50,405 bases of DNA from UHGV virus genome UHGV-0169486, one strand, 5' to 3'. The stretch is from a virus. This document shows positions 1 through 50,405 of this stretch, in pieces. The notes beneath the pieces were generated by a model. It saw nothing but the letters and a program-made list of their open reading frames with translations, was not told the origin of the DNA and ran no database searches. The translations under genes and the position numbers were made by a program. The stretch's first letter is position 1. The number at the start of each line of letters is the position of its first letter.

Positions 1-95
1 TTGCTTGGCTTAATGCGTTTTCTTCGTTATAGAGCGTTTAAGGGCTTTTCACGAAATTAACCAAAACTGAGCGTAAAGTTTACGATCTGCTGGCT

Positions 96-284
96 GTGCA
101 TTGCCGGACGGGAGGTTATCAAATATCACTTATCATGCTTGCTGACAGGTTGGGAGTGAGTCGGCAAAGTGTTAAGCTAGCGATCCGATCTCTGGAACAG
201 GCCGGAGTAATAGCCATTTGCAGGAGTAAATTGCATGGACGCCAACAAGCTAACGTTTATGTCATCTTAAAAATCAAAAAATAG
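96..284 (+). CDS. small winged-helix DNA-binding protein (start uncertain, possibly truncated)
   Basis: ORF track; HTH-like segment LADRLGVSRQSVKLAIRSLEQAGVI; in-frame stop at 39-41, no in-frame ATG before GTG at 96. Confidence 0.3.
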   Translation: MHCRTGGYQISLIMLADRLGVSRQSVKLAIRSLEQAGVIAICRSKLHGRQQANVYVILKIKK

Positions 285-413
285 CCACCTGATAGCGCCT
301 CTGACGCAAGAAAGACACTGCACTCTTATAAGTGGGTTACGCGGTGGGATTTTGCGTTGTAGCGCGTTTTACGGGAAATAAATATACATTCTGTAAACAT
401 GAGGAATAACGTT

Positions 414-1532
414 ATGTCACAAAGAAAGATCAGCGATGAGGAATTAATCGCTGAACATAACAGCGGCCTGACGTATAAACAGATCGCTGAGAAGTACGGC
501 ATGGCAAAACGCAACGTCGAGCGCCTGGGCGCACGGCTGGCGAAACGCGGTTTAATATCCACGCGCCGCGCGCCGGGTTTTGGTGTCAATGGTGAATCAT
601 TGCTCGTTGATAAAGATGGCAATGTAATCATGCGCTGGATTAAAACGGCCCGTGACCGTGAGGAAATGGAAAGGCTAATGCAGGCAGCTTGTGACGCATT
701 TACGGAAGAAATGCCGCGCGAGGAAGCCGTGCCAGTGCCGGAAATTGATTTTCAGAAAAGCCTGGCCCTTTATCCGGTATTCGATCTGCATATCGGGGCG
801 CTTGCGCATAAAGCTGAATGCGGAGAAAGCTACGACACCGGGATCGCTGAACGCGTGTTAAATGACTTCTTTGACTACGCTGTAGGCGCTGCACCAACGT
901 CTGAAAAAGCTGTATTGCTTCTCGGCGGTGATGTGCTTCACACGGACGGGCTATTACCAGTGACGCCATCAAGTAATCACGTCTTAGATTGCGATTCACG
1001 CTACGCAAAACTTGTTTATGTGGCGATCCGGTCGGTCCGGCGTGCGGTGGGGAAAATGTTGTTAAACCATAAGGACGTCGAGATCCAGGTGTTATCCGGC
1101 AATCACGATCAGTCGGGGATGATTTGGCTACGTGCGGCGCTGGCGGCTTTTTACGAAGATGAACCGCGCGTAACGGTTGATGTGTCCCCTGCTATCGTCC
1201 ACCACACACAATACGGAAAAACATTCCTTGCTTACCACCACGGACACACCATCAAAAAACCAGAAACCTTACTTGCTGCCTGTGTTTCTGACTGGCGGGA
1301 GGATTTCGGTAAATCGTCGTCAGTTTACGCTCATTGCGGACACTGGCATCACCAGCGGCTGATTGAATCATCGTTAGGCGTTGTCGAGTATCACGGAACG
1401 TTAGCTGGCAAAGATGCTTACTCGACGAATGGCGGCTGGCGTTCACGGCGGCTGGCGGCGGTGATTATTTACAGCCCGGCTCATGGAGAAATTGGGCGCT
1501 TTGTTTATTACCCTGAATATTCCATTTTGTAA
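414..1532 (+). CDS. HTH domain fused to calcineurin-like metallophosphoesterase
   Basis: Motifs DLHIG, GGDVLHTDG, GNHD, HHGH, GHWHH in canonical order; N-terminal HTH LTYKQIAEKYGMAKRNVERL; ATG 414 has GAGGAA RBS (track start 399 lacks one). Confidence 0.75.
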   Translation: MSQRKISDEELIAEHNSGLTYKQIAEKYGMAKRNVERLGARLAKRGLISTRRAPGFGVNGESLLVDKDGNVIMRWIKTARDREEMERLMQAACDAFTEEMPREEAVPVPEIDFQKSLALYPVFDLHIGALAHKAECGESYDTGIAERVLNDFFDYAVGAAPTSEKAVLLLGGDVLHTDGLLPVTPSSNHVLDCDSRYAKLVYVAIRSVRRAVGKMLLNHKDVEIQVLSGNHDQSGMIWLRAALAAFYEDEPRVTVDVSPAIVHHTQYGKTFLAYHHGHTIKKPETLLAACVSDWREDFGKSSSVYAHCGHWHHQRLIESSLGVVEYHGTLAGKDAYSTNGGWRSRRLAAVIIYSPAHGEIGRFVYYPEYSIL

Positions 1533-1550
1533 ACATGAGGTAATGCCATA

Positions 1551-2972
1551 ATGATAACTGACCAAGTAAACTCATTGCGGCAGGAGCGCGAAGCGGCTGT
1601 TATAGGTGGCCTCCTGTTAGGCGGGCTTACTCCTAACGCGCAAGATGTTCTTGCTACACTCGATCCTGATGTATTCACTATTCCTCTGTACAGGCGCGCG
1701 TTCGAAATCATCAGGGCGCAAGCCAGAAACAGAAATCTTATCGACGCGTTATTGGTTGGTGATGAAATCGGTAACGAAAATTTCATACCGCTAATGCAAA
1801 CGGCGCGATCGTGTCCTTCTGCTGCCAACCTGAAAGGGTACGCGCAGCTACTACAGGAAGAACACCAGCGGCGGCAAATGCTGGAGCTAATGGAAGACGT
1901 TCGCTACAAGCTGGAAACGGGGACGCTTGAAGTTGTCAAAGAGACGATGAAAGATTTTGATTCCCGGTATTCAAAATTAAAGGTAACAAAAGATCAGATT
2001 ATCCCGGTGCTGTTGCGCGATGCTGTCCAGGAATACACGGAAGTGCTAAGTAAACGCATGGAGTGTGGCGTGAACTCTGACAACATCAAAACAGGGATTG
2101 ACCCACTCGACGAAATGTTAGGCGGCATTAACGCTACTGATCTGGTGCTTATCGCCGGACGCCCGGGGTCTGGTAAATCGGCGTTGGCGTTGGCAATTGC
2201 CCGCGCGGCGGCTGGACGCCAATACCCTGGCGGAGAAGGTCAGCGGGTCGGCGTTTTGCTGTTCACGCTTGAAATGTCGCTCGATCAGATGACTGAACGA
2301 GCTATCGCTGGCGCTGGGAATTTATCAACGGATTGCCTACGTAATCCGGTAAAACTGGATGACGAAGGATGGGCGCACGTTGCCCGGGGGATGAGCGCCC
2401 TTGCCGATCTCGATGTGTGGATTGTTGACGCATCGCAGTTAACGGTTGAGGAAATACGCGCCACCGTCGAACGGATGAAACAGGACCATCCTAATCTTGG
2501 AATGGTGATGATTGACTACATCGGGTTAATGAAACTGGCTAAGGCCGAACGTCATGATCTCGCCGTAGGGCAATTGTCGTGGTCATTGAAAATGATGGCG
2601 AAAGAGTTGCGCGTGCCAGTGGCGGCGCTGGCGCAATTATCCCGCCGCGTTGAAGAACGACCGAACAAGCGCCCGAACAATTCTGATCTGCGTGATTCCG
2701 GTAATCTTGAACAAGACGCAGACCGGATCATCATGGTCTACCGCGACGGCTACTACAACGAACAATCAGTTGCCCGCGAATACATGGAGATCATCGTTTC
2801 AAAAAACCGTTACGGGAAAACGGGGACTGTTTACCAGCGGTTTGACGATAACGGCAACATCATTCCATGCAACCAGGCTCGCGCGGCGTCCGCCTGCATC
2901 CAGTCAATGCAACAACGTCCGGCAGCAAGCCGATTCTCCACACGAAATAACCAGAATAACGCATCCTTTTAA
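1551..2972 (+). CDS. DnaB-family replicative helicase
   Basis: Walker A GRPGSGKS, DnaB-like N-terminal domain, RecA-like C-terminal domain; GAGG RBS. Confidence 0.85.
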   Translation: MITDQVNSLRQEREAAVIGGLLLGGLTPNAQDVLATLDPDVFTIPLYRRAFEIIRAQARNRNLIDALLVGDEIGNENFIPLMQTARSCPSAANLKGYAQLLQEEHQRRQMLELMEDVRYKLETGTLEVVKETMKDFDSRYSKLKVTKDQIIPVLLRDAVQEYTEVLSKRMECGVNSDNIKTGIDPLDEMLGGINATDLVLIAGRPGSGKSALALAIARAAAGRQYPGGEGQRVGVLLFTLEMSLDQMTERAIAGAGNLSTDCLRNPVKLDDEGWAHVARGMSALADLDVWIVDASQLTVEEIRATVERMKQDHPNLGMVMIDYIGLMKLAKAERHDLAVGQLSWSLKMMAKELRVPVAALAQLSRRVEERPNKRPNNSDLRDSGNLEQDADRIIMVYRDGYYNEQSVAREYMEIIVSKNRYGKTGTVYQRFDDNGNIIPCNQARAASACIQSMQQRPAASRFSTRNNQNNASF

Positions 2973-3051
2973 TTAACTTGAGCAAACGGCTTACCGGAAA
3001 GTTGATCTCTTTCTGGTGGCTGTTTTCGCGCTTAAAACGAGACGAAAAACA

Positions 3052-3609
3052 ATGAGCATTGAACTTGAAACAAAAGTTATCAATATCCTTGAACTGGACT
3101 GCATCGCAACAATGCACCAGCTACGCCAGAAAACCGGATTATCAGCGAAATATGACGAAGCCGGATGTTTGCCTGAGACAATTAAACACTTGATTGATAC
3201 TGGTATTGTCGAGCGTGTATATACATATTTCGGACCGCGCCGCAGATTATTGGGGTATCGAATTAAATATTTGTATGCACAACGTCGTGATCGTGTGGCG
3301 GCGTTATTTAGTGACTACAGCGTTAAGAAGCGTATGCGTGACATTAGCGCGGAAACTGGTATCCCGTGGAATTACCTGTCGCGCACGCTGCGTTTAATGG
3401 TACTTGATGAAACGCTTTGCATAGACACCAAAAAACACGGCCTTAACTTTTACTCACTGTTTAAACCTGGGCGCTTTGGTCACGCTAATGATCTCGCGTT
3501 TGATTTTGACAGCCGCCTGAATGAATACCGGAAAAATAACGGCCTGTTACCGGATAAACCAGTATTTGAGATCGAAAAACTTAACGGTGAAACGGGGTTA
3601 GAATTATGA
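3052..3609 (+). CDS. hypothetical protein
   Basis: ORF track (3016..3609); ATG 3052 preferred over upstream GTG; same operon as helicase. Confidence 0.5.
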   Translation: MSIELETKVINILELDCIATMHQLRQKTGLSAKYDEAGCLPETIKHLIDTGIVERVYTYFGPRRRLLGYRIKYLYAQRRDRVAALFSDYSVKKRMRDISAETGIPWNYLSRTLRLMVLDETLCIDTKKHGLNFYSLFKPGRFGHANDLAFDFDSRLNEYRKNNGLLPDKPVFEIEKLNGETGLEL

Positions 3610-3812
3610 GACGGGTAATCTTTTATTCAGTTGAAACGTTTGTCGACGATACGCGCGTTTATTATCCGTGGGAAGTATACGACGCAAAGGTGTATACACC
3701 GCCACTGATGCGGAAATATAAACACGTAAAATTTAACCGGGTTTTTGTGCCAATGCACGATGCATTGCGGGCGCTGCGTGGGGAATTGCGAAACACAATG
3801 CGGATTGTGTAA
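3606..3812 (+). CDS. hypothetical protein
   Basis: ORF track; ATGA start/stop overlap with upstream gene. Confidence 0.5.
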   Translation: MRRVIFYSVETFVDDTRVYYPWEVYDAKVYTPPLMRKYKHVKFNRVFVPMHDALRALRGELRNTMRIV

Positions 3813-3821
3813 GGGGGAATT

Positions 3822-4019
3822 ATGGACAAGGATTTAGAATTGACCGTGGAGGATTTAAGCACGATCGCGGAATACATGCGCGGCGATGATCCTGATAAGC
3901 CTGTCACGGTTGATATGAAAAGATTAAAGGAAAAATACATGACAAGCTCGCGGCTAATTTCTTTGCAGGCGATTATGTATGCGCGTGCTATATGGCGAAA
4001 TAGTAACGGTGTATCATGA
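3822..4019 (+). CDS. hypothetical protein
   Basis: ORF track; RBS AAGGGGG upstream of ATG. Confidence 0.5.
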   Translation: MDKDLELTVEDLSTIAEYMRGDDPDKPVTVDMKRLKEKYMTSSRLISLQAIMYARAIWRNSNGVS

Positions 4020-4447
4020 GGCAAATTAGATTTGAGATAGTCAACGACGCAGTGAAAGAAAATGCTATCAGGCAGATAAGAGAGATCCAGCCTGATAGCA
4101 AAAGCCCGCTGATAATCACCATTCAGGAGAAAACCCGCTCGCTAAGCCAAAATGCGTTGCTTTGGGCGCTGTTGACCGACATTAGCGATCAGGTTAATTG
4201 GTACGGTAAGAAGCTGTCGCCGGAAGACTGGAAAGCGGTATTCACTGCCGGACTTAAGAAATATGGCGTAGTCCCTAACCTGGATAAATCAGGCTTCGTT
4301 GTATTGGGAACGTCTACAAGTCGAATGAGTAAATCAGAATTCAGCGAACTAATCGAATTGATTTACTCGTTCGGCGCGGAACATGATGTTCAATGGTCGG
4401 GTGATACGAAATTAAACGAGGAATTTATAAAACGCTGGGGGCAATAA
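4016..4447 (+). CDS. ninB: NinB-like recombination protein
   Basis: Recalled similarity to lambda NinB (QERNRSLDQN / VFTAALK / GFVVIGQSTSRM equivalents); ATGA overlap with upstream gene. Confidence 0.8.
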   Translation: MRQIRFEIVNDAVKENAIRQIREIQPDSKSPLIITIQEKTRSLSQNALLWALLTDISDQVNWYGKKLSPEDWKAVFTAGLKKYGVVPNLDKSGFVVLGTSTSRMSKSEFSELIELIYSFGAEHDVQWSGDTKLNEEFIKRWGQ

Positions 4448-4623
4448 TGGCGCGTTATTACATGGCTAAACCTACCGGAATTTTGTATAAGGTTGATGGC
4501 GAATATGTTTATTACTTCCACAACCAGGCGCGGGAGTGGCGATTGTGTCACGCTCACTTTCAGCACGAAATAGAAAATCACCCTGAATATTTTATCAAAG
4601 TTGACAACGTAACTGTGGCGTAA
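4447..4623 (+). CDS. hypothetical small protein (58 aa, below track cutoff)
   Basis: Own translation MARYYMAKPTGILYKVDGEYVYYFHNQAREW...; start overlaps NinB stop (TAATG). Confidence 0.4.
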   Translation: MARYYMAKPTGILYKVDGEYVYYFHNQAREWRLCHAHFQHEIENHPEYFIKVDNVTVA

Positions 4624-4638
4624 TTGAGGATAAGCAAA

Positions 4639-5292
4639 ATGAATAAACTAAAAGCAATTGGCGTGATTAGCCATCGCACTAACCCTGAATGTTACCCATC
4701 GTTTGAGGTAACAACATGCCGCACAGAATATAATTTTGGATCATACTATTTATTGGGTGTCCGCGCTGACACTGGCGGCACTTATTCGGTTATGGCTGCA
4801 AGCTGGAAATTTGATAAATACGCTAATTTATCGAATAAGGATGATGACGGCATGAATAAAGAAAGTGAAATCATTGATGAATTAATCGAAGATGAACGCC
4901 ATGATTGCGAAACACAACAAGAAAAAACAGAATGGAAGCCAGGAGAAAAGCCGCCGTGCGGCGTGTGGCTTGATTGTTATTATCCTGATGGCTATTACAT
5001 TGGGATTGTAATGTTTAAGTTTATCGGTGATAAATACGGGGTATACACAGAAAAAGGCAGTATACAGAAAGAAAATGCTATTGAATGGGGTTTTTATAAT
5101 TATTATTTATACGTTGATCCGAAAGAAAAAGCACTGGCGCAAATTGCGTTTGCTCTGGCTACGAAGGTTATTGGTGAGGATGCGGCAGGAGAAATAAATT
5201 TCAATCGTGATAATGATTATTCGCGTGATTATCGCAATATGGCGCAAGCTATTATTGACGGATGTATCGGACACGTTGAATACACGGAATAA
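4639..5292 (+). CDS. hypothetical protein, AT-rich accessory gene
   Basis: ORF track (4624..5292); ATG 4639 with GAGGA RBS; AT-rich codon usage by eye; Cys-containing, no recognised domain. Confidence 0.55.
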   Translation: MNKLKAIGVISHRTNPECYPSFEVTTCRTEYNFGSYYLLGVRADTGGTYSVMAASWKFDKYANLSNKDDDGMNKESEIIDELIEDERHDCETQQEKTEWKPGEKPPCGVWLDCYYPDGYYIGIVMFKFIGDKYGVYTEKGSIQKENAIEWGFYNYYLYVDPKEKALAQIAFALATKVIGEDAAGEINFNRDNDYSRDYRNMAQAIIDGCIGHVEYTE

Positions 5293-5426
5293 TGGATAAA
5301 ACAGGGACAATCCTTCTTAGTCGCCCTGCCATCTGCCGGATGCTTGGTGGAATTAGCAGGGGAACATTTTATTTATGGCGTAAAAAATGGGAACGGAACG
5401 GAACTCCGTTCCCCTGTCTGGAATGA
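5292..5426 (+). CDS. AlpA-like small HTH protein (44 aa)
   Basis: Own translation MDKTGTILLSRPAICRMLGGISRGTFYLWRKKWERNGTPFPCLE; GISRGTFY..W....FP pattern typical of AlpA/excisionase-like HTH; TAATG coupling to upstream gene. Confidence 0.4.
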   Translation: MDKTGTILLSRPAICRMLGGISRGTFYLWRKKWERNGTPFPCLE

Positions 5427-5511
5427 TTAACGACATGAATAATCATTTGTAAAACAGCATGTTATGTTATCTTTGCTTTGGATTTTTGATATTTGGTCAC
5501 TATTTGGTACA

Positions 5512-5541
5512 CAAAAAGAAACGAGGAGTTAGCCTCGTTTC
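5512..5541 (-). terminator. rho-independent terminator at end of minus-strand late block
   Basis: Stem GAAACGAGG/CCTCGTTTC, 6-nt loop, T-run on minus strand; immediately downstream of 5585..5851 gene. Confidence 0.6.
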
Positions 5542-5584
5542 GCGGCGATGTCTTCAACATCACCATGCTGTTGCTGTCGCACCA

Positions 5585-5851
5585 TCAAGCCCATGCGCGG
5601 ACGCCTGGATCTAGAACGATGAATTTTTCCAGCGGCGACAAATCAACATCGTCGCCAGTAATGCGCATGTTGACGTAATAGCCCTTTTTCTCAATCAGTA
5701 CAGGTGTCTCACTTTCTGGATCATCGAATACAGGCACAAAACCAATTTCATCAACAAATACGGTTGACCAGTTGGCGTCCAGCCAGCCGCTCTTAATCAC
5801 AATATCGTTGTATTGCTGTTTATCAGTAAATTGCAAGCTAACATCTTTCAT
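5585..5851 (-). CDS. hypothetical protein downstream of tail fiber (possible fiber accessory/assembly protein)
   Basis: ORF track (5585..5869); ATG 5851 with AAGGTGG RBS. Confidence 0.5.
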   Translation of the reverse strand: MKDVSLQFTDKQQYNDIVIKSGWLDANWSTVFVDEIGFVPVFDDPESETPVLIEKKGYYVNMRITGDDVDLSPLEKFIVLDPGVRAWA

Positions 5852-5861
5852 ATTCACCACC

Positions 5862-7625
5862 TTAAACAATCTCGCTCAATTGCGCATCGGTCAATGCTTT
5901 GTGCCATACCCTGAAATTTCTAATGTGTCCAAAAAGATGTCGCACCCCCGACGTGGCTTGCCCGCCAAAACGGATTGACGTAGCACTGACTGCGAATACA
6001 TTGCCGCTTGGTTTGGTTGTATATTTACCGTTGCACACGGCATCGACCGAAAGATTCTGCTGCGCGCGAACACCAGCAATAAAGTGACGGCTTTCGGGCT
6101 GAATTAACGGTTGCACCATTCCTACGTTAGCCGCAATCTCACCCGTGCTAACAAATCCAAGCGATAAGTAATTATCATTACTCCTATTACCTCCAACATC
6201 AAAAATTCGAGGCGATTGGTTTGGCGGCGTACCCCAGTTTACGTGCACCTCGACCAGTGATGTGAACGGTAGGGATGATAGATTGTTTTCTGCGAAGATA
6301 TTGACCATATCGCTGGCGCGCGTTGTCGGTAATGTGCCGGAGATGATATATGAGGACGCCCCTATTCCTAGCTCAACTTGCGGTGTGGTTAGTTCGATAT
6401 AATCCCCGGCAGCATAACTACTCACTGGCGAGATCTGGAACTGTGCGTTAACCAATGCCGTGGTGGATTGCAGCATCACCACCGCGCGATTCCATCCGGT
6501 GACCTCGTCTCTCTCAACTTCTACCGTGATACGTTTCGCAGCGCCACCAGTTTTAGACACTGACAAGTCGCTAAGTTTAATGTATGCGTCGCCGGAGAAA
6601 GTCATACTACTCTGATCCGCACCCTCTGCAAAACGCACGCGCAGACGTACATCCTTGTCGGACCGGAATCGGCATGATGCCGTTACATATTTCTCGTCAC
6701 CAGACGTATCAAGACTGTTAGCCGCAGTTACGGAAGCCATATTAAACGCCGTATTTTTTCCTACACCATCGGCCACGATCACGCACTTACCGTACAGGAA
6801 GCCGAAGGCATCCGTGTTTGCAGTTGTCGTAACTGACGGCGAGCACCCCCAGCTTGATGGAGTGTTACCGTTTATAATGTAGTTAGTTCTGGTCCCTTCA
6901 ACCAGCAGCCCTTCTCGTTCAAAACGTGGTTCGTCAATGGCTGCTTCCTTAAACACACCGGATTTGTTTATATAAGTTGCTTTTGACGCGCGTTTAAATT
7001 TAACGATCTTGTCACCTGGTACTGTTGTTTCTTCTTCACCAATAACAATCTTTTTATAGGAAGGGGAAAACCCGGTAATCATGTCGAGAGAGTCGTTAAA
7101 CGGTATCCATACGTCCGGCAGCGGCTGCAAAACATACGCGTAAGGCTGCGCTGTCTGATTGGCGTATTCGCGGGCCTCGTCTCTGTATGTCTTAGCTGAA
7201 TCGGCGGCGCTTGTCGCTGTTGTTGCAGCGTTGGTTGCAGTGGTAGCTGATTGTGACGCTAATTTTGATGCTGAAATCACATCTTTGTTGTCGCTGAAAA
7301 ATTCGACGGCGTCAGCTATTTCTGATTCCTTGCCTTGATAGTAACGCAGTGTTTCGGCGACATCCTGAGCAAGACCATCTACAGAGATCGAGTCTGAAAG
7401 CAGGATGCTAAATTTAGTGCCAGCCGGAATAGCAGGACTTGCCGAGGGGGTTACTGATAAACTTGTTGCGCTTTTTACCTCTGTAATTGAAAAAATCTGC
7501 ACCGGATCGCTAATGGCAATAAGAGTGCAACCAACCCTGATCAGAGATAATGCGGCGTTGAATTCAGTCCCTGTCCCGGTAACTGTTTTTCCGCTAACGG
7601 CTATCGTGCCTGTTGTGTAAATCAT
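5862..7625 (-). CDS. side tail fiber / receptor-binding protein
   Basis: ORF track (5862..7679); ATG 7625 with AAGGAG RBS lies downstream of a TATAAT promoter; Thr/Gly-rich N-terminus, Ala/Thr/Ser-rich central segment, C-terminal lectin-like region. Confidence 0.8.
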   Translation of the reverse strand: MIYTTGTIAVSGKTVTGTGTEFNAALSLIRVGCTLIAISDPVQIFSITEVKSATSLSVTPSASPAIPAGTKFSILLSDSISVDGLAQDVAETLRYYQGKESEIADAVEFFSDNKDVISASKLASQSATTATNAATTATSAADSAKTYRDEAREYANQTAQPYAYVLQPLPDVWIPFNDSLDMITGFSPSYKKIVIGEEETTVPGDKIVKFKRASKATYINKSGVFKEAAIDEPRFEREGLLVEGTRTNYIINGNTPSSWGCSPSVTTTANTDAFGFLYGKCVIVADGVGKNTAFNMASVTAANSLDTSGDEKYVTASCRFRSDKDVRLRVRFAEGADQSSMTFSGDAYIKLSDLSVSKTGGAAKRITVEVERDEVTGWNRAVVMLQSTTALVNAQFQISPVSSYAAGDYIELTTPQVELGIGASSYIISGTLPTTRASDMVNIFAENNLSSLPFTSLVEVHVNWGTPPNQSPRIFDVGGNRSNDNYLSLGFVSTGEIAANVGMVQPLIQPESRHFIAGVRAQQNLSVDAVCNGKYTTKPSGNVFAVSATSIRFGGQATSGVRHLFGHIRNFRVWHKALTDAQLSEIV

Positions 7626-7655
7626 CGCAATGACTCCTTTGTTATTAGTTATAAT

Positions 7656-7684
7656 ATTATACCAACTGTATTTGCTCACACAAA
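7656..7684 (-). promoter_or_regulatory. sigma70-like promoter for side tail fiber gene
   Basis: Perfect -10 TATAAT with TTTGTG 17 nt upstream, read on minus strand. Confidence 0.4.
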
Positions 7685-7732
7685 ATATGCATATTATTAT
7701 TTCTATAAGATATTAAATGTTGGGGGAATATC

Positions 7733-42785: not shown

Positions 42786-42794
42786 TGCGCCCCC

Positions 42795-43028: not shown

Positions 43029-43030
43029 AA

Positions 43031-43267
43031 CTAAAACGGATCATCCCAATCTGGCGCGGCAGTCCAGCAAAACCCGACAAATGCGCTAACCGCCAATAAA
43101 GCGCGGGCGACAAAAAGAATATTCCCAATGTCGTTAAATTCAGGCATCGACCACGTAATAAAAATCGCCCCCAGCATAATAACGACGATAACAGCCGCTG
43201 CCGCCAGGAAAACAAAAAGCGTAGCTAAAAGCCACGCTCCCAACCAGTTTAAAAAGCTCTTAAACAT
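43031..43267 (-). CDS. small membrane protein (two predicted TM segments)
   Basis: ORF track; hydrophobic segments. Confidence 0.5.
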   Translation of the reverse strand: MFKSFLNWLGAWLLATLFVFLAAAAVIVVIMLGAIFITWSMPEFNDIGNILFVARALLAVSAFVGFCWTAAPDWDDPF

Positions 43268-43269
43268 TT

Positions 43270-43473
43270 TTAAACGTCCTCAATCACTCCGTCTTTCACG
43301 CGTTCTTTAATATCCCATACGTGGGGCTTGCATACTTCATGGTAATAGTGATCCGGCCTGCTGCCGAAATACCATTCGCCATCCATATAAAAATAAACGC
43401 CAGAAAAATCACCTGGCGCTGCCTTTGTTGCTGCTTCTGGAATTTTCCATTCCCTGTAATGTTTAAACTTCAT
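43270..43473 (-). CDS. hypothetical protein
   Basis: ORF track. Confidence 0.5.
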   Translation of the reverse strand: MKFKHYREWKIPEAATKAAPGDFSGVYFYMDGEWYFGSRPDHYYHEVCKPHVWDIKERVKDGVIEDV

Positions 43474-43515
43474 GCATTAATACCGCCTGTTTAAGCGCGC
43501 TCAATCTATAAGGCA

Positions 43516-43653
43516 TTAAACGAAAATGCTGTACACCATCAATAATGTTAACTCTGTAAATATCACCGACCGCGTTATAGTAATAACAGCCAGCATAACC
43601 GACCCAGCTAATTTAGCGTTATCCGGTAGCCTATAGTCTCCAACGCATTTCAT
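43516..43653 (-). CDS. possible hydrophobic micro-protein (45 aa)
   Basis: Own translation MKCVGDYRLPDNAKLAGSVMLAVITITRSVIFTELTLLMVYSIFV; GAGGTGA RBS. Confidence 0.35.
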   Translation of the reverse strand: MKCVGDYRLPDNAKLAGSVMLAVITITRSVIFTELTLLMVYSIFV

Positions 43654-43681
43654 AAAATCACCTCATATGGTATTCAATAAA

Positions 43682-43750
43682 TCATCTAACAAATAAACAG
43701 AAAGCAACAAATCTCCAGCAAATGCACATGAATAACAATGCGTCGTCCAT
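43682..43750 (-). CDS. possible hydrophobic micro-ORF (22 aa)
   Basis: Own translation MDDALLFMCICWRFVAFCLFVR; GGAGG RBS; starts next to stop of upstream gene. Confidence 0.3.
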   Translation of the reverse strand: MDDALLFMCICWRFVAFCLFVR

Positions 43751-43752
43751 AA

Positions 43753-43971
43753 TCAAGCCTCCATTAATCCGTAGTCGAATTTACCTAAATATCTTTCAAG
43801 GCTAGCAACTTCAACACCATCAACGCACCGCTTCCACACGGATATCTGGTATTCGTTTTCTCTCAAGTGCATATTAAAAAGCACTTCATCGGCTGGATAG
43901 CTTTTCCCGGCGACGTAGGCATCGTGACCTACACCACCTTCTACACAGTAGAGCATCAATTCGCGCTCCAT
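43753..43971 (-). CDS. hypothetical protein
   Basis: ORF track (43753..44031); internal ATG 43971 with GGAGAAA RBS preferred. Confidence 0.45.
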   Translation of the reverse strand: MERELMLYCVEGGVGHDAYVAGKSYPADEVLFNMHLRENEYQISVWKRCVDGVEVASLERYLGKFDYGLMEA

Positions 43972-44069
43972 CTTGTTTTCTCCGCGCCGTAAACCTTTCG
44001 ATTTCTTCTTACAAAACGGATATGCGATCACAGCACAAAATGTATATTTATGTGATCGCGATCACCCTG

Positions 44070-44690
44070 TTAATGTAGTACACGTTTTTCCTGTTTCGGC
44101 ATTGGCTGTGCACGTTTTCTGGCATCATTCAGCGTCGCCAGAACACACTGGACGCCAAAATCATTAGCCCGCATATTATCGCCGACCATATCACCATAAA
44201 TAACAGGCATGAATTTTTTCACTTCTTCCGCGTCGCGCCCTTCTTCTACCGCTTTCTTAAGCACTTCAGCTTCAAGGCTATCTCGCATCAGTTCACGGAT
44301 TGTATGCAATGAAGCACTACCCATCACCCCGTCGCCCAGCGGGACCATTATCGCACTACCATACGCAAGCGGGTCCAGTTCTTCCGGCACTGGTACACGT
44401 CCGAATTCCTCCTCCATGCGTCTTACGAAAGTGAGGCAGAACACATAACGCGCTACCGATGTTTTTTCTTCCATATTTAGAGACACGTAATCGCGGATTG
44501 ACGCATCCATCACAATGTCAACAACCTGTAGCGCCAGGTTTAAATCACCGTCATACGCGCCAGCGTTCATATCTTTTAATACTTCGTGATAATCCTTAGT
44601 TACCACTTCGTGAAAGCTCGCGTCTTCTGTGTAGCGAGTAATTAACATGCCTTCGCTGCCGAGTGAATAAGCCGTTTTGATATTGTTCAT
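44070..44690 (-). CDS. hypothetical protein (about 206 aa)
   Basis: ORF track (44070..44720); ATG 44690 with AAGGG RBS. Confidence 0.55.
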   Translation of the reverse strand: MNNIKTAYSLGSEGMLITRYTEDASFHEVVTKDYHEVLKDMNAGAYDGDLNLALQVVDIVMDASIRDYVSLNMEEKTSVARYVFCLTFVRRMEEEFGRVPVPEELDPLAYGSAIMVPLGDGVMGSASLHTIRELMRDSLEAEVLKKAVEEGRDAEEVKKFMPVIYGDMVGDNMRANDFGVQCVLATLNDARKRAQPMPKQEKRVLH

Positions 44691-44701
44691 AATATTTACC
44701 C

Positions 44702-45034
44702 TTATAGTGGATGATGCCATTTCATTTCAGTTTCTGAATTAAACGGGTTTTCTTCGCTTGAAAGGAATAAATCACGCTCCCGTTTCAGTTCTTCCGGGCT
44801 TATTTCTATTTCATCAATCTGACCGAACGATCCCGGCATCATTCGTTTTAAGTCAGATAGCGGTCGCATAAGGCCGCAGCCGCGTAACAGCATATCAACC
44901 GCGAATTTTCGCCGCCCGCCAGCGTCATTGAAGCGGCGCGACCAGGGCGCTACCACGATCCGGCGTTCGAATTCGATAAATAGTGATAGCTTGTTTGTGT
45001 TAGCGTCATACGCTTTGTGGAATTTAATTTTCAT
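44702..45034 (-). CDS. hypothetical protein
   Basis: ORF track; GAGGTG RBS. Confidence 0.5.
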   Translation of the reverse strand: MKIKFHKAYDANTNKLSLFIEFERRIVVAPWSRRFNDAGGRRKFAVDMLLRGCGLMRPLSDLKRMMPGSFGQIDEIEISPEELKRERDLFLSSEENPFNSETEMKWHHPL

Positions 45035-45215
45035 TTAACACCTCGACATATTGCTCAAGATGCCATTGCCCCACCTCGTCGTAATCTTCATCAAATATTG
45101 TTACTTGACCACCCGGGCCGAAATGAAAGGCAGTAGCAATAAATTCATGTCCCCACCATGACATTAATCTTTCACCGCCTTTCAGGTGTTTAACCTTCAC
45201 TAATTTTATAGCCAT
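45024..45215 (-). CDS. hypothetical protein (start uncertain)
   Basis: ORF track; internal ATG with GGTGAAAG RBS also possible. Confidence 0.4.
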   Translation of the reverse strand: MAIKLVKVKHLKGGERLMSWWGHEFIATAFHFGPGGQVTIFDEDYDEVGQWHLEQYVEVLNEN

Positions 45216-45478
45216 ACGCCGAACATCCCATCCAGTCCGGCGAACAATTTACGCCAGTGGTTTTCAACATAAGCCCGGAACGGCTTAACGCGAACATTGC
45301 GGGCCTTCAGTTCAATCTTGTCGAAGAAACGCGGCTCTATAATTGTTCCGTCCAGATATTTAACCAGGATTGGGCGCTCAAGATCGTTATATGTCTTGTT
45401 CAGCACAACCAGACCAGGGTCACTACGATATTCAGGCAAAACAACAAGATCGCCCTCTTTTACATTCCAAGTAACCAT
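45206..45478 (-). CDS. hypothetical protein
   Basis: ORF track (45206..45481); AAGGGG RBS. Confidence 0.5.
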   Translation of the reverse strand: MVTWNVKEGDLVVLPEYRSDPGLVVLNKTYNDLERPILVKYLDGTIIEPRFFDKIELKARNVRVKPFRAYVENHWRKLFAGLDGMFGVWL

Positions 45479-45597
45479 CACATCAACCCCTTACCAATAA
45501 AAGCCAATACCGCAGCAAGTGCTCCGCAAAATGCAATCGTAAACAGGAAACAAATAACGCAAAACGCGACCGTCACAATATCCTTACCGACTTTCAT
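45478..45597 (-). CDS. hydrophobic micro-protein (39 aa)
   Basis: Own translation MKVGKDIVTVAFCVICFLFTIAFCGALAAVLAFIGKGLM; coupled to neighbours. Confidence 0.4.
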   Translation of the reverse strand: MKVGKDIVTVAFCVICFLFTIAFCGALAAVLAFIGKGLM

Positions 45598-45599
45598 GA

Positions 45600-45719
45600 T
45601 TAACCCCACATATTAGTAATCAGTTTTATGATCGCTATCGTGATATAAAGCGAAGCGGCAAGATAAGCAACCGCTATTGCAACCCCTGCGGATAACGCTG
45701 CTATTTTGATTATGTTCAT
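45600..45719 (-). CDS. hydrophobic micro-protein (39 aa)
   Basis: Own translation MNIIKIAALSAGVAIAVAYLAASLYITIAIIKLITNMWG; GGAGG RBS; ATGA overlap with upstream stop. Confidence 0.4.
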   Translation of the reverse strand: MNIIKIAALSAGVAIAVAYLAASLYITIAIIKLITNMWG

Positions 45720-45967
45720 TTTTCAGCCTCCGCAATAAATTTATCCAGCCATTTATTATTCGCCAGGCGTTCGGCATCTTCGCCAAATGATTTACGATCG
45801 CTTAATTCCTGTCGAGTAGGGAAAGGCCATTTATCACTCCAGCCCGCAGACGTTTCGAATTCATAGTTGCCGCCGCCGAAATCAACAAATACATCACTAT
45901 CATCAAGGCTTTCCGCAGTTCTCTGAAAACCTCTACAGTTATTTTCGCTTAATGTTGTAGCTGTCAT
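45716..45967 (-). CDS. hypothetical protein
   Basis: ORF track (45716..46195); ATG 45967 with GAGGAG RBS; upstream part of track ORF overlaps another gene. Confidence 0.5.
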   Translation of the reverse strand: MTATTLSENNCRGFQRTAESLDDSDVFVDFGGGNYEFETSAGWSDKWPFPTRQELSDRKSFGEDAERLANNKWLDKFIAEAEK

Positions 45968-45980
45968 GATTAACTCCTCA

Positions 45981-46259
45981 TTAATCGTTAATAACCTGGC
46001 CCATACGCCCGCGATATTTGCGCATACGTGGATCGACATATTCAGGCCAATGCATATCATCAGTTTTCTGTAGTGGGTAAAAACTTGCCTGCCAGTTGTC
46101 GAACCATATTTGCTTTGCGTACAGGTCACTAAATCTTTTTGCCATCCGATCCGCTGCCGTGCCGCATAAAAAAAGCTCATGATCGATTTGATCACGGGCT
46201 TCTTTTAATACTTGCTCTTTTGTTCGTGGTGGCGGTGGCGCTTTTAAATAATCACCCAT
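45981..46259 (-). CDS. hypothetical protein
   Basis: ORF track. Confidence 0.5.
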   Translation of the reverse strand: MGDYLKAPPPPRTKEQVLKEARDQIDHELFLCGTAADRMAKRFSDLYAKQIWFDNWQASFYPLQKTDDMHWPEYVDPRMRKYRGRMGQVIND

Positions 46260-46274
46260 CGCTAACCTATTTAA

Positions 46275-46694
46275 TCAGAACGGGATATCGTCATCGAAGT
46301 CCATCGGCGGCGGATTATTCCCGTTATTATTCTGCTGCTGCGGCGGCGCTTTCTGCTGCTGGCCTTGCTGCTGGCCTTGTTGGTTAACGTTCATGAATTC
46401 AAATTCGTTAACCGCCACTTCTACCGCCGTCCCCTTAGTGCCGTCGTTCCGGTCATATTGCCGAACATCCAGGCGACCACTTACAACTATCTTTCCACCC
46501 TTGCGGATATGTGACGCTAATTTTTCCGCTCGCTCACCGAATACCAGGCAAGTGATCCACATCGTCCGCTTATTATCGCCGTAGCCATTCGTTACAGCTA
46601 ACGGAAAACTACCAATCGCCTTCCCGTTTTGCGTATAGCGTACTTCCATGTCGTTTCCGATATTCCCGCCAAGCGTGATTGAATTTAAACTCAT
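46275..46694 (-). CDS. ssb: single-stranded DNA-binding protein
   Basis: OB-fold-like N-terminus, Gln/Gly-rich linker, acidic C-terminal tail DFDDDIPF; TAATG coupling with erf. Confidence 0.85.
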   Translation of the reverse strand: MSLNSITLGGNIGNDMEVRYTQNGKAIGSFPLAVTNGYGDNKRTMWITCLVFGERAEKLASHIRKGGKIVVSGRLDVRQYDRNDGTKGTAVEVAVNEFEFMNVNQQGQQQGQQQKAPPQQQNNNGNNPPPMDFDDDIPF

Positions 46695-47335
46695 TAGCTC
46701 ATCTCCACATTAAGCTCTGCGATCCGGATGTCATAAACATCTTTTGCTTTAACTCGATGTTCCGATCCTTCCGGCAGTAATTTCCAGCATTTACCGAATA
46801 TTTCACGCAACTTGTTAGCGTCCGGCGCTTTCGCTGCTGCATCACAGAAACGCGCTAACACTTCATCAGGATTTGGCGGCGCTTTCTGCTGCTGCTGTTG
46901 TTGTTTTGGCTGGTTTTTCTGCTGTCTAGGCTGCTGGCCTGTCTGCTTACTGTAAGCATCAGTATCCGCGTCTTTTGCATCGTCTATGCAGAATAAACCG
47001 TTCAAAGCATATTTCCGCGCGTAACTTGATGTTGCTCCTGTTAGCTGGCTTGCATCCATTCCCTTCTTATTATCTTCCTCCCTTGCGTAAGCAGTTACCG
47101 CTATCGCGTCCTCACCGTCACTTAGTGTCGCCGTAGCTTTCACGTAATAGCGTTCGCCAATTAAGACGATTTCATCACTTACCGTCAGAGTGATATTTTG
47201 AAGCAGTGGTTTAACAGCCTCTAAAATATCTTCTGCCGAACGATAATTATAACCGCCAAAATTATTGCGCTGACTTTTCGGCGCATTCAGCGTCTGCTGA
47301 ATAGTCCACAGCTTTTTATGTAATTCTGTTTTCAC
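46694..47335 (-). CDS. erf: ERF-family single-strand annealing recombinase
   Basis: Recalled similarity to P22 Erf (LNAPK, YRS.EDILE.VKPLL, DEIVLIG.RYYVKATAT, GATSSYARKY, DDAKDADT); GTG start with GAGGGAGA RBS. Confidence 0.85.
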   Translation of the reverse strand: MKTELHKKLWTIQQTLNAPKSQRNNFGGYNYRSAEDILEAVKPLLQNITLTVSDEIVLIGERYYVKATATLSDGEDAIAVTAYAREEDNKKGMDASQLTGATSSYARKYALNGLFCIDDAKDADTDAYSKQTGQQPRQQKNQPKQQQQQQKAPPNPDEVLARFCDAAAKAPDANKLREIFGKCWKLLPEGSEHRVKAKDVYDIRIAELNVEMS

Positions 47336-47484: not shown

Positions 47485-47775
47485 TTATCTGTAGCGTACT
47501 TTATCCAGGGGTTTTTCCCCTAGACTACGCGGTTGTGTTGCGTGGTAGTAATTGCCGCTTTCGTTTTCCGCATACCATTTTGCCGCACCTTTGCGATGCT
47601 CTTTAATGCCATTCGGTTTGCATCTTTCTACGTTTGCAAAACGAATAGCTTTATCAACATTGTCAGTTTTATTGATTGCAGGTGATGATTTTCTTTCGTT
47701 TTCTCTTTTTATTCTTCTGCGTTCCCTGGCATTTATTTTGCTATCACATTTGCCATACATAATTGTTACGGTCAT
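47485..47775 (-). CDS. N-like transcription antitermination protein (arginine-rich motif)
   Basis: First gene downstream of PL-like promoter and boxA/boxB; ARM-like NARERRRIKRENERK; AAGGAG RBS. Confidence 0.55.
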   Translation of the reverse strand: MTVTIMYGKCDSKINARERRRIKRENERKSSPAINKTDNVDKAIRFANVERCKPNGIKEHRKGAAKWYAENESGNYYHATQPRSLGEKPLDKVRYR

Positions 47776-47831: not shown

Positions 47832-47869
47832 GCCGCACTTCCAGCGGCTGACCAGATTGTTAAAGAGCA
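47832..47869 (-). promoter_or_regulatory. nutL-like site (boxA TGCTCTTTAACAA plus boxB-like hairpin)
   Basis: boxA matches recalled rrn/lambda boxA consensus; hairpin GCCGC-TGGAAGT-GCGGC; between PL-like promoter and N-like gene. Confidence 0.6.
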
Positions 47870-47911: not shown

Positions 47912-47940
47912 AATATACGCCCCGTGATACACCGAGTCAA
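47912..47940 (-). promoter_or_regulatory. PL-like sigma70 promoter
   Basis: TTGACT - 17 nt - TATATT on minus strand; TATCACG operator-like half-site within spacer. Confidence 0.65.
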
Positions 47941-48063: not shown

Positions 48064-48675
48064 TTATGGCAGGTTTACGATCTTCGCGTCCACCACCACG
48101 CCTATGATTTTCGATTCAGGATTCATGGGGATTGGTGGATACAGCGGGTTAAGCGAACGTAAAAGCCTTTGACCTCCATCAATAATCAACTGTTTAAACG
48201 TCGGTATTTGCCCTTCCTCAAGCTGTGCTATAACCAGCTTTCCATCGATAGCTGGCGCGTGTGGGTCAACAAGTATCATCGTCCCGGCAGGGATGCTCAA
48301 CCCCTGCGGCGCGTTCATTGATTCACCTTTAGCAACCAGCCAGTAACTATCATCTGAACAAATAACGCTAGTCGTAACGTGTGGTAATGTTGATCGCCTT
48401 GTATCTTCCATATTGTTTACTGTGTCCTTCCAGTCAACAACCGGGTAACTGCCTAAATCACGCTGCGGCGCTCCCGGTAACGTGTTAGAAACAGAATCAT
48501 CAATGACCATTCCATCATGGGTAACAGTGAACTGCCGACGACCAAGTGCCCGCATAATCCGCGCAATATCTTCAAGATTTGGCTCGCGGCGACCGTTAAG
48601 CCAGTGTGACAGGCCGCCTTTAGTTATCCCCATGAGATCCGCGAGTGAATCCTGGCTCATGCCTTGCGCTCGCAT
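48064..48675 (-). CDS. CI-like repressor (HTH plus LexA/S24 peptidase domain); 5' end possibly frameshifted
   Basis: HTH SQDSLADLMGITKGGLSHWLNG; S24 region with GESM and Lys; annotated ATG lacks RBS and truncates helix 1. Confidence 0.7.
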   Translation of the reverse strand: MRAQGMSQDSLADLMGITKGGLSHWLNGRREPNLEDIARIMRALGRRQFTVTHDGMVIDDSVSNTLPGAPQRDLGSYPVVDWKDTVNNMEDTRRSTLPHVTTSVICSDDSYWLVAKGESMNAPQGLSIPAGTMILVDPHAPAIDGKLVIAQLEEGQIPTFKQLIIDGGQRLLRSLNPLYPPIPMNPESKIIGVVVDAKIVNLP

Positions 48676-48874
48676 GAGCTGCTTTGCTAAGTCATACCAT
48701 TTGTTTTCATGTCGCTACCCTATAACCTCAAAAGTTTGATACAAGTCACAAAATGTATTTTTCAAAGCCTTGATTTAAAAACTCCATTCTGTAAACTTGC
48801 AGACAAGGTAAGGCCATAGTTGCAAAGACGCAAAAAAAAAGATAACGGAATAGCACAAAAAGGCGCATACCTCA

Positions 48875-48908
48875 TGCTCTTTAAAAATCCGGTGTCGCTG
48901 CGAAGCGA
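48875..48908 (+). promoter_or_regulatory. nutR-like site (boxA TGCTCTTTAAAAA plus hairpin TCGCT-GCGA-AGCGA)
   Basis: boxA-like sequence and tetraloop hairpin in PR leader, upstream of first rightward gene. Confidence 0.5.
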
Positions 48909-49017
48909 AAAACAAATATCACGCAACGGCGGGATCTGTTGAGCGGTCAGTCACTGCTATCTAATGCTAATGGGATGCCCGCCCGCGCGTTCACTCTAAC
49001 CATAGGAGAAAAACAAG

Positions 49018-49272
49018 ATGAGTATGCACATGATGAATGAAGCATGGAACGTAAAACTTAACAGCCCGATCCAAAAACTTGTCTTAATTGCGTTTGCAGA
49101 AAAGGCAGACAACAAAGGCCGCGCACATGCTTCACGCGAAGAGATCGCAAAAGTGTGCGAACTGCCACTGCATACTACTGTTGACGCATTAAATTCATTG
49201 ATCCGCAAAGGATTCATTAAACGCGCTGACGAATACGGCGACATTTATGACATTGCATTGCCGGAGGAATGA
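49018..49272 (+). CDS. winged-helix DNA-binding protein, first gene of rightward operon
   Basis: ORF track; AGGAG RBS; winged-helix-like segment. Confidence 0.6.
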   Translation: MSMHMMNEAWNVKLNSPIQKLVLIAFAEKADNKGRAHASREEIAKVCELPLHTTVDALNSLIRKGFIKRADEYGDIYDIALPEE

Positions 49273-49275
49273 TCT

Positions 49276-50328
49276 ATGAAATGGTTTAAGCATGATAGCG
49301 ATGCAAACCGCGATGAAAAACTTCAAAACGTTTTATTAGATTATGGCCTGGAAGGGTACGGGCTTTATTGGTATTGCCTAGAACTAATAACTTATGACGT
49401 AGATCAGCACAATCTAACTTTTGACCTACGACATGACGCAAGAATAATTGCGCGAAACGTCGGATCTACTGAAAAACGTATAGAAGAAATGATGAAATAC
49501 TTCATCGAAATTGGTTTGTTTGAATGTTCTCAAGGCCACATAACTTGTTTAAAGTTATTGAAAAGGCTGGACCAATCAATGACTTCTAAAAGCGCTTACA
49601 GGGCCGCCATAAACACAGCGAAGGAGCAATTAACATTAGAAAAGTTAATCAATCCAACACAAAAAGGTCATGACCGGGTCATGACCAGGTCAGGAAAGGG
49701 TCATGAATTAGAATTAGAAGTAGAAAAAGAAAGAGAAAAAGATATATACACTTCGTGTATTGTCGAAAATGAACAAAAAATGGTCAATCAGGATGGCGTA
49801 AACGAAGCGGCATTGCGTTGCCTGGCCTTCTACAACGACAAGGCAGGATGCAAATGTCGTGATGCTAAGCCATTCGTAGAACTACTGACAGAAACAAAAA
49901 CACGTAAAGCGTATACGGAGGATGAGATCACATTAGTGATTGAGTGGGCTTTAACGCAATGGCGTAGCCGTGGTGGAACACCTAAGCCTATCAACATTTG
50001 CCGGGTAACTAAGTTTGATGGGTATTTGGCTGATGCTGAACAATGGCGCAAGCTATCAGCTACTGTAAACGCCGCCGACGTAGTGGAAGCATTTAACAGC
50101 ACGTTTGATGGCCTGTTACCACCTGCTGAACTTGATCGGGATCTGGAACGTAAAATTTATGCGTTCTCTGACTACCTGAAAGATAAAAGCGTCAAAGGCT
50201 TTATCAGCTACTTCGAAGCGTTCAAAAATACGGCCTCAGATTTTTACTTCGGCAATGGCTTCACTGCGACACTAGATTTCTTACTAAAACCAAAAACGCT
50301 ACGCGACACCCGCGCTGGCGCTCTTTGA
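49276..50328 (+). CDS. replication initiator / replisome organizer
   Basis: N-terminal WFKHD...GLEGYGLYWYCLEL motif typical of phage replisome-organizer N-domain; iterons plus AT-rich tract inside gene. Confidence 0.75.
   Translation: MKWFKHDSDANRDEKLQNVLLDYGLEGYGLYWYCLELITYDVDQHNLTFDLRHDARIIARNVGSTEKRIEEMMKYFIEIGLFECSQGHITCLKLLKRLDQSMTSKSAYRAAINTAKEQLTLEKLINPTQKGHDRVMTRSGKGHELELEVEKEREKDIYTSCIVENEQKMVNQDGVNEAALRCLAFYNDKAGCKCRDAKPFVELLTETKTRKAYTEDEITLVIEWALTQWRSRGGTPKPINICRVTKFDGYLADAEQWRKLSATVNAADVVEAFNSTFDGLLPPAELDRDLERKIYAFSDYLKDKSVKGFISYFEAFKNTASDFYFGNGFTATLDFLLKPKTLRDTRAGAL
49666..49755 (+). other. putative origin of replication (iterons plus AT-rich region)
   Basis: Four GGTCATGA-type repeats at exact 11-bp spacing (49666, 49677, 49688, 49699) followed by AT-rich tract, inside initiator gene. 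Confidence 0.6.
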
Positions 50329-50405
50329 CTACCAAGCTTCACAAAAACCCAAAATAACCCACTTAAACGCTCCCCTAACGCGATAAAACATATCAAGTGC
50401 TATAC

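Follow-up and report, generated by a model that had tools for sequence, protein, structure and literature searches.

Integrase gene deletion and repressor frameshift in a probably lytic coliphage genome of the mEpimmI group

The virus genome UHGV-0169486, a stretch of 50,405 nucleotides (nt) that was analyzed at its full length and is called the window below, is complete and comes from a siphophage that is a new, defective member of the mEpimmI (mEp021) group. Its integrase gene, int, is deleted and its repressor gene is frameshifted, and the phage is very likely lysogeny-defective and probably obligately lytic. A preliminary description of the window, made from the sequence and its open reading frames (ORFs), had left a choice between a virulent derivative of a temperate lineage and a phage that maintains itself without integration. 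The comparisons reported here favor the former, as the site occupied by the integrase gene in the relatives is a deletion scar in the window and the start of the repressor gene is frameshifted.

Affiliation with the mEpimmI group

Both halves of the window were compared by megablast with 50,697 phage records, and the long matches came from one family only. The Escherichia phage MagusPhagus was matched over 76-85% of the query at about 88% identity, and the Mexican coliphages mEp021, mEp010, mEp013, mEp044, mEp515 and mEp554 at 83-86% identity. The blocks shared with MagusPhagus and mEp021 follow each other in the same order around the whole circle, i.e., the genomes are collinear. A related prophage was found in 35 complete E. 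coli genomes, always in the chromosome (35/35). The closest one is that of E. coli KKa019, with 92.6% identity across 94% of one window half; other prophages of the group are those of E. coli M15, FAH and PAR.

The mEpimmI group comprises temperate, Nus-dependent, "non-lambdoid" coliphages that are frequent in the human gut, and its Rep021-type immunity repressor is about 96% conserved among members (PMC11893012). The repressor of the window is of this type and differs from that of mEp021 by 3 substitutions across 198 aligned residues. There is also a Gp17-type N-like ORF with its arginines, accompanied by three nut sites. In addition to the near-identical CI-type repressor, the Gp17 arginine-rich motif and the nut sites, the window shares with the group Q, ERF, SSB, NinB, NinG, RusA, an Sf6-type TerS and collinearity around the whole circle at 83-93% nucleotide identity, and it has the att core and the helix-turn-helix (HTH) gene of the type-I subgroup, which integrates at ydaM/dgcM. 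The group trait missing from the window is the tyrosine integrase adjoining attP. This absence is a secondary loss and no argument against descent from the mEpimmI group. Further differences from the group are the loss of the attP arm next to the integrase gene and of the final 35 HTH-gene codons, the repressor frameshift at codon 4, and a 1,172-bp deletion running from dam to a membrane-protein gene. Its tail-fiber module is of the M15-prophage type (97.7% identity in the flanking arm) and distantly T5-like.

The preliminary description had called this gene set lambdoid, which is a loose label. A lambdoid phage in the strict sense has the gene order of lambda and modules exchangeable with it; the gene order of the window is a different one, the megablast search of the phage collection gave no near match to lambda-type phages, and PMC11893012 describes the group as non-lambdoid.

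Absence of the integrase gene

No integrase had been seen when the window was first described, and the sensitive search then suggested as a check gave the same answer. The integrases of two relatives found no match in the window by tblastn, and a hidden Markov model (HMM) built from 11 integrases of the group reached a best E-value of 2.2 against the six-frame translation of the circular sequence. Every ORF of at least 170 amino acids (aa) has another assignment or a syntenic homologue. Two long ORFs in the neighborhood where an integrase gene could be expected, of 605 aa (5862..7679) and 320 aa (7733..8695), were considered as integrase candidates and rejected, since they encode a phrog_1419 tail fiber and a DUF6453 membrane protein, respectively. 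The window has no tRNA genes that could serve as att targets.

At the end of the plus-strand operon, the relatives have NinB, then a gene coding for about 215 aa, then an HTH gene of 72-76 aa; beyond these lie a convergent tyrosine integrase gene, attP and the tail-fiber genes, in that order. The integrase, mEp021_01 in mEp021, has the domains Arm-DNA-bind_3 and Phage_integrase. It is present in the M15 and FAH prophages, both integrated between dgcM and zntB, in 8 of the 8 contigs that encode an identical NinB protein, and in all 18 IMG/VR relatives with enough downstream DNA, one of which has it split. A tyrosine integrase has been reported for 48 of 48 mEpimmI genomes (PMC11893012). The window is the only int-less genome among those examined and the only one without an integrase in a group that numbers more than 48 genomes; the explanation is a simple deletion.

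Nine more IMG/VR loci end at, or at most about 240 nt past, the homologue of the 215-aa gene, before any position at which an integrase could be found, and the missing integrase is there a boundary artefact. The records of the proviruses L064, L067, L069-L071, L079 and L080, which come from isolate genomes in IMG/VR, end about 240 nt past the homologue of 4624..5292, and their lack of int is a boundary artefact of the provirus caller and not a loss. The split integrase belongs to L078 (IMGVR_UViG_3300045988_084845), where ORFs of 212 and 226 aa lie in different frames past position 4650; judging from these reading frames, L078 is another group member with a decaying lysogeny module.

A deletion scar at the attachment site

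The 12-bp att core, GTCCTGTCTGGA, was obtained by comparing attL with attR of the M15 prophage and was confirmed by attL and attR of FAH, attR of PAR and attP of mEp021. It corresponds to codons 14-17 of dgcM (ydaM), the type-I integration site of PMC11893012. The window retains 10 of these 12 bp, CCTGTCTGGA, at a junction where CCGTTCCCC is directly followed by TGTCTGGAATGATTAACG. To the left of the junction lies the HTH gene up to codon 41, 94% identical to that of the M15 prophage. To the right, the core continues from its third or fifth base on and is followed by the tail-fiber-side arm; this side matches M15 attR without gaps at 97.7% across 488 nt. Homology to the HTH gene ends at window position 5413/5414 in every relative, phage or prophage, homology to the tail-fiber end of the prophages begins at 5413 in 14 lysogens, and the mEp021 record, which is linearized at att, ends at window position 5423.

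The interrupted HTH gene is the homologue of mEp021_02, a putative excisionase or recombination directionality factor with a match to HTH_23. By tblastn, residues 1-41 of mEp021_02 match the window at 92.7% and none beyond. The truncated ORF (5292..5426) consists of 41 native codons and then reads Cys-Leu-Glu-stop from the att core. In comparison with the M15 prophage, 1,439 bp are missing (M15 coordinates), a segment whose size and content are read from mosaic relatives: the 35 codons at the end of the HTH gene, the whole int gene, the int upstream region with its promoter, and the integrase-side arm of attP. An FAH-like HTH variant was considered as the parent, with a microhomology of 5-7 bp (CCCCTGT), and was rejected as the window does not have the 6 extra bases expected of it. 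A pattern search of IMG/VR for type-I attP sites returned none.

The retained arm contains a 23-bp tandem element, TTTGGTCAC-N2-TTTGGTACAC. In the relatives this element occurs once more, immediately upstream of int and across the core; that other copy is absent from the window. Because the integrase of the relatives has an arm-binding domain, these tandem elements are probably arm-type integrase binding sites.

A frameshift at the start of the repressor gene

The apparent repressor frameshift of the preliminary description is a missing A with respect to mEp021 and MagusPhagus. The window reads ATGAAAACAAATGG where these two phages read ATGAAAACAAAATGG (MKTKWYDLAKQLMRAQG...), and the shortening of the A-run at 48700-48702 by one A produces a -1 frameshift at codon 4, with a stop after seven codons. 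The remaining repressor ORF can be read only from Met13, the first in-frame start past the frameshift, as there is none upstream; Met13 has no good Shine-Dalgarno sequence. The resulting ORF of 203 aa has intact HTH_3 and S24 domains, and its product lacks the N-terminal arm, MKTK, and, in the DNA-binding domain, most of helix 1. The two conserved lysines of the arm have been linked to operator contact (PMC11893012). The wild-type 26-mer was matched by 41 IMG/VR contigs, and the 25-mer of the window by 0 IMG/VR contigs and 0 GTDB representative genomes. As far as this sequence goes, the frameshift is genuine, and the allele is rare and derived; the consequence is most likely a loss of repressor function.

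The same region bears on the annotation of mEp021. In record MH706966.1 the repressor gene, mEp021_15, is annotated as starting at MSQDSL (198 aa). An in-frame MKTKWYDLAKQLMRAQG lies upstream of this start, and the MagusPhagus gene is annotated from the corresponding position (215 aa). The deposited mEp021_15 start is probably too short, because the "N-terminal arm with two lysines" of PMC11893012 implies the longer repressor.

Is it conceivable that one or both lesions are artefacts, produced by an assembly error, a minority variant or a homopolymer miscall, and that the real phage is normally temperate? The frameshift concerns a single base of an A-run, and a sequencing error could account for it; moreover, exact-match searches for the deletion junction in viral (IMG/VR), genome (GTDB) and metagenome (JGI) collections found none. 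However, the repeat at the junction (2 bp shared) is too short to mislead an assembler, and the junction is precise and located at a biologically meaningful site. Reading A4 as A3 is an uncommon error on most platforms, and relaxed selection accounts more readily than unrelated errors for two independent lesions that hit one pathway. We consider an artefact improbable.

Lifestyle

The ancestor, as the deletion scar shows, had dgcM as its integration site, i.e., it would have been a type-I mEpimmI phage. The 1,439-bp deletion together with the repressor frameshift would leave the phage incapable of integration and, most likely, of repression. Growth would then be lytic, with clear plaques, as the N-like/nut/Q cascade and the replication, recombination, lysis and virion genes are intact. 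Of what defines a functional temperate phage, int and one attP arm are gone, the core is cut and the repressor is frameshifted. Loss of the repressor, the integrase or both is known to make temperate phages lytic, as in the cI- mutants of lambda and in the mycobacteriophages engineered for therapy. The window shares with such clear-plaque or virulent derivatives the loss of these two functions and the conservation of the lytic ones, but its lesions are two, independent, and apparently arose spontaneously. It would also differ from lambda vir: its operators seem untouched, so the phage should stay sensitive to immunity, and exclusion by lysogens of the same group is still expected.

Some points weigh against this explanation. 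A near-identical parent carrying int was not found in the collections, the deleted segment was reconstructed from relatives that are mosaic, the A-run leaves room for the sequencing error discussed above, and a 203-aa repressor could be made from Met13 by reinitiation. The last of these leads to another explanation, in which the phage is still temperate but does not integrate: the Met13-restarted repressor would suffice for immunity, and the phage would persist as an episome, in a carrier state or by ERF-driven homologous recombination into related prophages. The restarted ORF is otherwise intact, with HTH_3 and S24; ERF, SSB, NinB, NinG and RusA are all present; and related prophages are frequent in E. 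coli. Nonetheless, Pfam, PHROG and NCBIfam scans of the window ORFs revealed no ParA/ParB, protelomerase, serine recombinase or transposase, nor was any other recombinase seen among the ORFs of at least 170 aa. A comparison of the replication region with the 72,556 plasmids of PLSDB yielded no relative, and the genomic relatives, all 35, are chromosomal. The scar indicates loss from an integrating ancestor and not a different design, and Met13, as noted, has no good Shine-Dalgarno sequence. This explanation, which corresponds to the maintenance without integration suggested initially, is highly improbable in our view. If true, it would represent a route to lysogeny that is independent of integrase in a group regarded as integrating without exception.

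Prophages that dispense with integration are well known. Those of the N15 type are linear plasmids with a protelomerase, and those of the P1 type are plasmids with ParAB. The window resembles them in having regulatory genes of the temperate type and no integrase. In contrast to them, it has no protelomerase, partition or plasmid-replication matches and no plasmid relatives, and it has a scar at the int locus.

The window is thus best classified within the mEpimmI group as a member that is defective in lysogeny and probably lytic; it represents no new lifestyle, and it is not a lambdoid phage. As a ready-made lytic variant of a coliphage group prevalent in the human gut, it could serve in host-range or therapy-type work, with the limit that it should remain subject to the immunity of same-group lysogens.

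Origin of the int deletion

The junction lies inside GTCCTGTCTGGA, as defined by three attR, two attL and one attP, and one endpoint of the deletion is consequently at the strand-exchange core of attP. Because this right endpoint is within 2 bp of the core edge, it suggests that the integrase of the phage itself began the deletion with a cut at the att core. The chance that an endpoint falls in the 12-bp core is about 3% if endpoints are confined to the non-coding interval of about 350 bp, and drops below 1% once endpoints inside int are counted too. The proposed event could have taken place in a free or replicating circle, between attP and the HTH-gene site, or during excision, between attR and the HTH-gene site; the products would be identical.

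Against an integrase-initiated event speaks the partner site. In the M15 prophage, the site in the HTH gene agrees with attB at 7 of 20 positions, about what chance would give, and the two ends share a microhomology of 2 bp. Because the partner site is weakly core-like, the argument for integrase comes down to the endpoint at the core. We favor an integrase-initiated deletion over chance recombination, and give it about an even chance of being correct.

Elsewhere in the window, a second deletion removed 1,172 bp with respect to MagusPhagus and mEp021. Its junction is at 42677-42687, within the minus-strand segment 42438-42785, and it lies between direct repeats of 11 bp, CCGCGAC(A/G)AAT. It leaves an in-frame fusion of dam codons 1-36 with the final 79 codons of a gene for a membrane protein; the gene that lay between the two is gone. 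To judge by its repeats, this is an example of ordinary repeat-mediated deletion in this genome.

The int deletion could likewise be the product of ordinary illegitimate recombination or replication slippage at the dinucleotide CC, in which case its end at the att core would be a coincidence and Int would have had no role. The lack of convincing core similarity at the HTH-gene site (7/20) agrees with this explanation, as does the dam deletion, which shows that the genome does undergo spontaneous deletions. However, an endpoint lying no more than 2 bp from the edge of the 12-bp core has a prior of about 1-3%, and the other deletion made use of an 11-bp repeat and not of 2 bp such as the CC at the int deletion. 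Ordinary recombination is the less likely origin but a serious alternative.

Deletions in lambda that terminate at att and depend on Int were reportedly described by Parkinson and Huskey and by Davis and Parkinson (J Mol Biol 1971). A literature search on Int-promoted deletions returned nothing directly relevant. The lambda deletions reportedly had one end at the attP crossover and the other at a nearby non-homologous site of the same molecule, as in the window. They differ in that here int itself was lost, the genome was sampled from nature, and dependence on Int is a proposal drawn from the junction. The selection for shorter, chelator-resistant genomes used with lambda would not apply to the window phage because its packaging is probably headful (see below). 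The scar at the att core neatly exemplifies, in a natural genome, a phenomenon that is classical and not new. Resolved to the base pair, the scar is a natural candidate for integrase-initiated loss of int, which, if true, would be one route from temperate to lytic growth.

Completeness and packaging

The ends of the window are adjacent in the relatives. The sequence is therefore a closed circle, and the point at which it was opened, between genes of the replication operon, is arbitrary. When the last 1500 nt and the first 1500 nt were joined, the product aligned with MagusPhagus positions 843-2384 uninterrupted at the join and with 94.9% identity (1544 columns for 1542 bases); mEp021 also matches across the join. 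There is no terminal direct repeat at the window ends, no ORF (0) crosses the join, and the plus-strand operon resumes at 96..5426. These results agree with the initial description of a rightward operon that runs off the end of the window and continues at its start.

The small terminase subunit, TerS, matched PF20901 (Sf6_terminase, E=2e-37) and the Sf6 gp1 structures 3HEF and 4DYC (E=4e-29), and is thus of the Sf6/P22 type found in headful (pac) phages. Sf6 packages its DNA by headful. Because TerS is Sf6-like, its sequence suggests that the window phage does the same. Together with the contiguity of the ends in the relatives, this supports the earlier proposal of a complete, circular or permuted genome that was opened arbitrarily.

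It is hardly conceivable that the window is instead an incomplete genome or a fragment of a larger prophage with the integrase gene outside it. The relatives are longer by 3-4 kb (53-54.7 kb), a difference largely accounted for by the 1.44-kb and 1.17-kb deletions and by variable morons. Moreover, the window ends are adjacent in the relatives, the expected int site lies inside the window and is fully accounted for, and the flanking host sequence that would have pointed to a larger prophage is absent, with no host DNA past the 10-bp core remnant.

Antitermination signals and promoters

Three boxA sites of the type GCTCTTTAA, each followed by a short hairpin, were found at the nut positions published for the group. 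Folding energy does not set such short hairpins apart, and the nut sites were identified by position and boxA. The nutL (48865..48912) and nutR2 (41542..41589) sequences are 75% complementary. In translation, the N-like protein has arginines R17, R19, R20, R21 and R24; the arginines conserved in Gp17 are R17, R19, R20 and R24, and PMC11893012 gives them together with the positions of the three nut sites. The early promoter at 47912..47940, which sits after the repressor terminator (48040-48057), was assigned by its 10/12 matches to the consensus. This promoter on the minus strand and the nut leader at 48865..48912 on the plus strand are the PL and the PR leader with boxA of the preliminary description, which had recognized both.

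The motif CATTYTGTAAAC occurs 6 times (0.76 expected), at 387, 1523, 10198, 41664, 47943 and 48785, always on the plus strand, and 5 of the 6 sites are intergenic. It is located beside both early promoters, just before the 377-aa gene and dnaB, and past the cytosine methyltransferase gene. The sites are kept in MagusPhagus and mEp021, where extra copies precede morons of the tail region. From this distribution, CATTYTGTAAAC may be an operator or promoter element.

Gene content and layout

Genes were assigned by Pfam, PHROGs and PDB matches, and the other head and tail genes by collinearity with the annotated genomes of MagusPhagus and mEp021 (Table 1). By these means, all the modules listed in the preliminary description, namely immunity, replication, recombination, Q, lysis, packaging, and head and tail, were located. 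The minus strand carries the repressor, the N-like gene, the recombination genes, Q, and the lysis and virion genes, and the plus strand carries the replication genes, NinB and the small HTH gene, a layout unlike that of lambda.

Table 1. Coordinates of the features discussed, by order of theme
Feature	Position	Strand	Remarks
Att core remnant CCTGTCTGGA (10/12 bp of GTCCTGTCTGGA)	5413..5422		junction 5414/5415, 2-bp (CC) ambiguity
Truncated small HTH gene	5292..5426	+	
Retained attP arm, tail-fiber side	5423..5584		compared with M15 attR arm
Tandem TTTGGTCAC-TA-TTTGGTACAC, putative arm-type Int sites	5492-5512		70-90 bp from att core
Hairpin and T-run, terminator of tail-fiber operon	5518-5541	-	
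Ancestral repressor start, now a 7-codon dead-end frame	48687..48710	-	A-run 48700-48702
CI-type repressor	48064..48675	-	HTH_3 and Peptidase_S24
Sigma-70-like early promoter of the long minus-strand operon ("PL")	47912..47940	-	TTGACT-17-TATATT
nutR1 (nomenclature of the mEp021 paper), upstream of N-like gene	47832..47869	-	boxA TGCTCTTTAACAA; boxB hairpin GCCGC-UGGAAGU-GCGGC
nutL (name used in the papers), leader of plus-strand replication operon	48865..48912	+	boxA TGCTCTTTAAAAA 48875-48887; hairpin 48895-48908
nutR2, third nut site, downstream of cytosine methyltransferase gene	41542..41589	-	position as in PMC11893012
N-like antiterminator	47485..47775	-	phrog_271, E=1.9e-10; 96 aa
Early and delayed-early gene block	39416..47335	-	
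ERF	46694..47335	-	Pfam/PHROGs
SSB	46275..46694	-	Pfam/PHROGs
DNA methyltransferase	41677..42441	-	Pfam/PHROGs
NinG	40721..41416	-	Pfam/PHROGs
RusA	40317..40724	-	Pfam/PHROGs
Q (Antiterm)	39416..40138	-	Pfam/PHROGs
Small HTH_36 protein, first gene of plus-strand operon	49018..49272	+	Pfam
Replication protein with Lin1244_N domain	49276..50328	+	Pfam
HTH ORF	96..284	+	
phrog_704 protein (377-aa gene)	399..1532	+	PHROGs
DnaB helicase	1551..2972	+	Pfam
MarR-like	3016..3609	+	
NinB	4016..4447	+	Pfam/PHROGs
222-aa ORF, no assigned function	4624..5292	+	homologue of the ~215-aa gene of relatives
Lysis, packaging, head and tail block	5585..33853	-	
Holin	33653..33853	-	
Lysozyme	33161..33652	-	Pfam/PHROGs
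Rz-like	32703..33173	-	
TerS, Sf6-type	30353..30838	-	PF20901, PDB
TerL	28872..30356	-	Pfam/PHROGs
Portal	27420..28814	-	Pfam/PHROGs
Mu-F-like	26534..27475	-	
Major capsid	23790..24845	-	
Tape measure	17666..20014	-	
L/K/I	12958..14869	-	
J	8726..12943	-	
Tail fiber, 605 aa	5862..7679	-	phrog_1419
94-aa ORF	5585..5869	-	

TerL had no match among the PDB sequences, an NCBIfam scan of ten unassigned ORFs gave no matches, and no protein identical to the truncated HTH protein, the 222-aa ORF product or the tail fiber was found on record. The PGAP label "anti-CBASS Acb1 family", seen in relatives, could not be placed on an ORF of the window and is suspected to be an annotation of the portal (DUF1073-type).

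The minus-strand tail operon is interrupted by blocks of plus-strand genes at 7733-8695, 15010-16017, 16625-17636 and 20316-20729. They include the DUF6453 membrane protein (7733..8695, 320 aa) and several small ORFs, one of which, 15553..15801, is the homologue of an mEp021 gene annotated as "putative antirepressor". These blocks look like morons with their own transcription. The distal tail fiber, which has a Laminin_G_3-like C-terminus, and the 94-aa ORF (5585-7679, minus strand) are not found at this position in MagusPhagus and mEp021 and are common to the E. coli M15 prophage. The same module matches the lateral tail-fiber loci of the T5-like phages AKFV33, FFH_1 and Lindwurm at 64-68% DNA identity, and 5585-7679 looks like a mosaic receptor-binding module.

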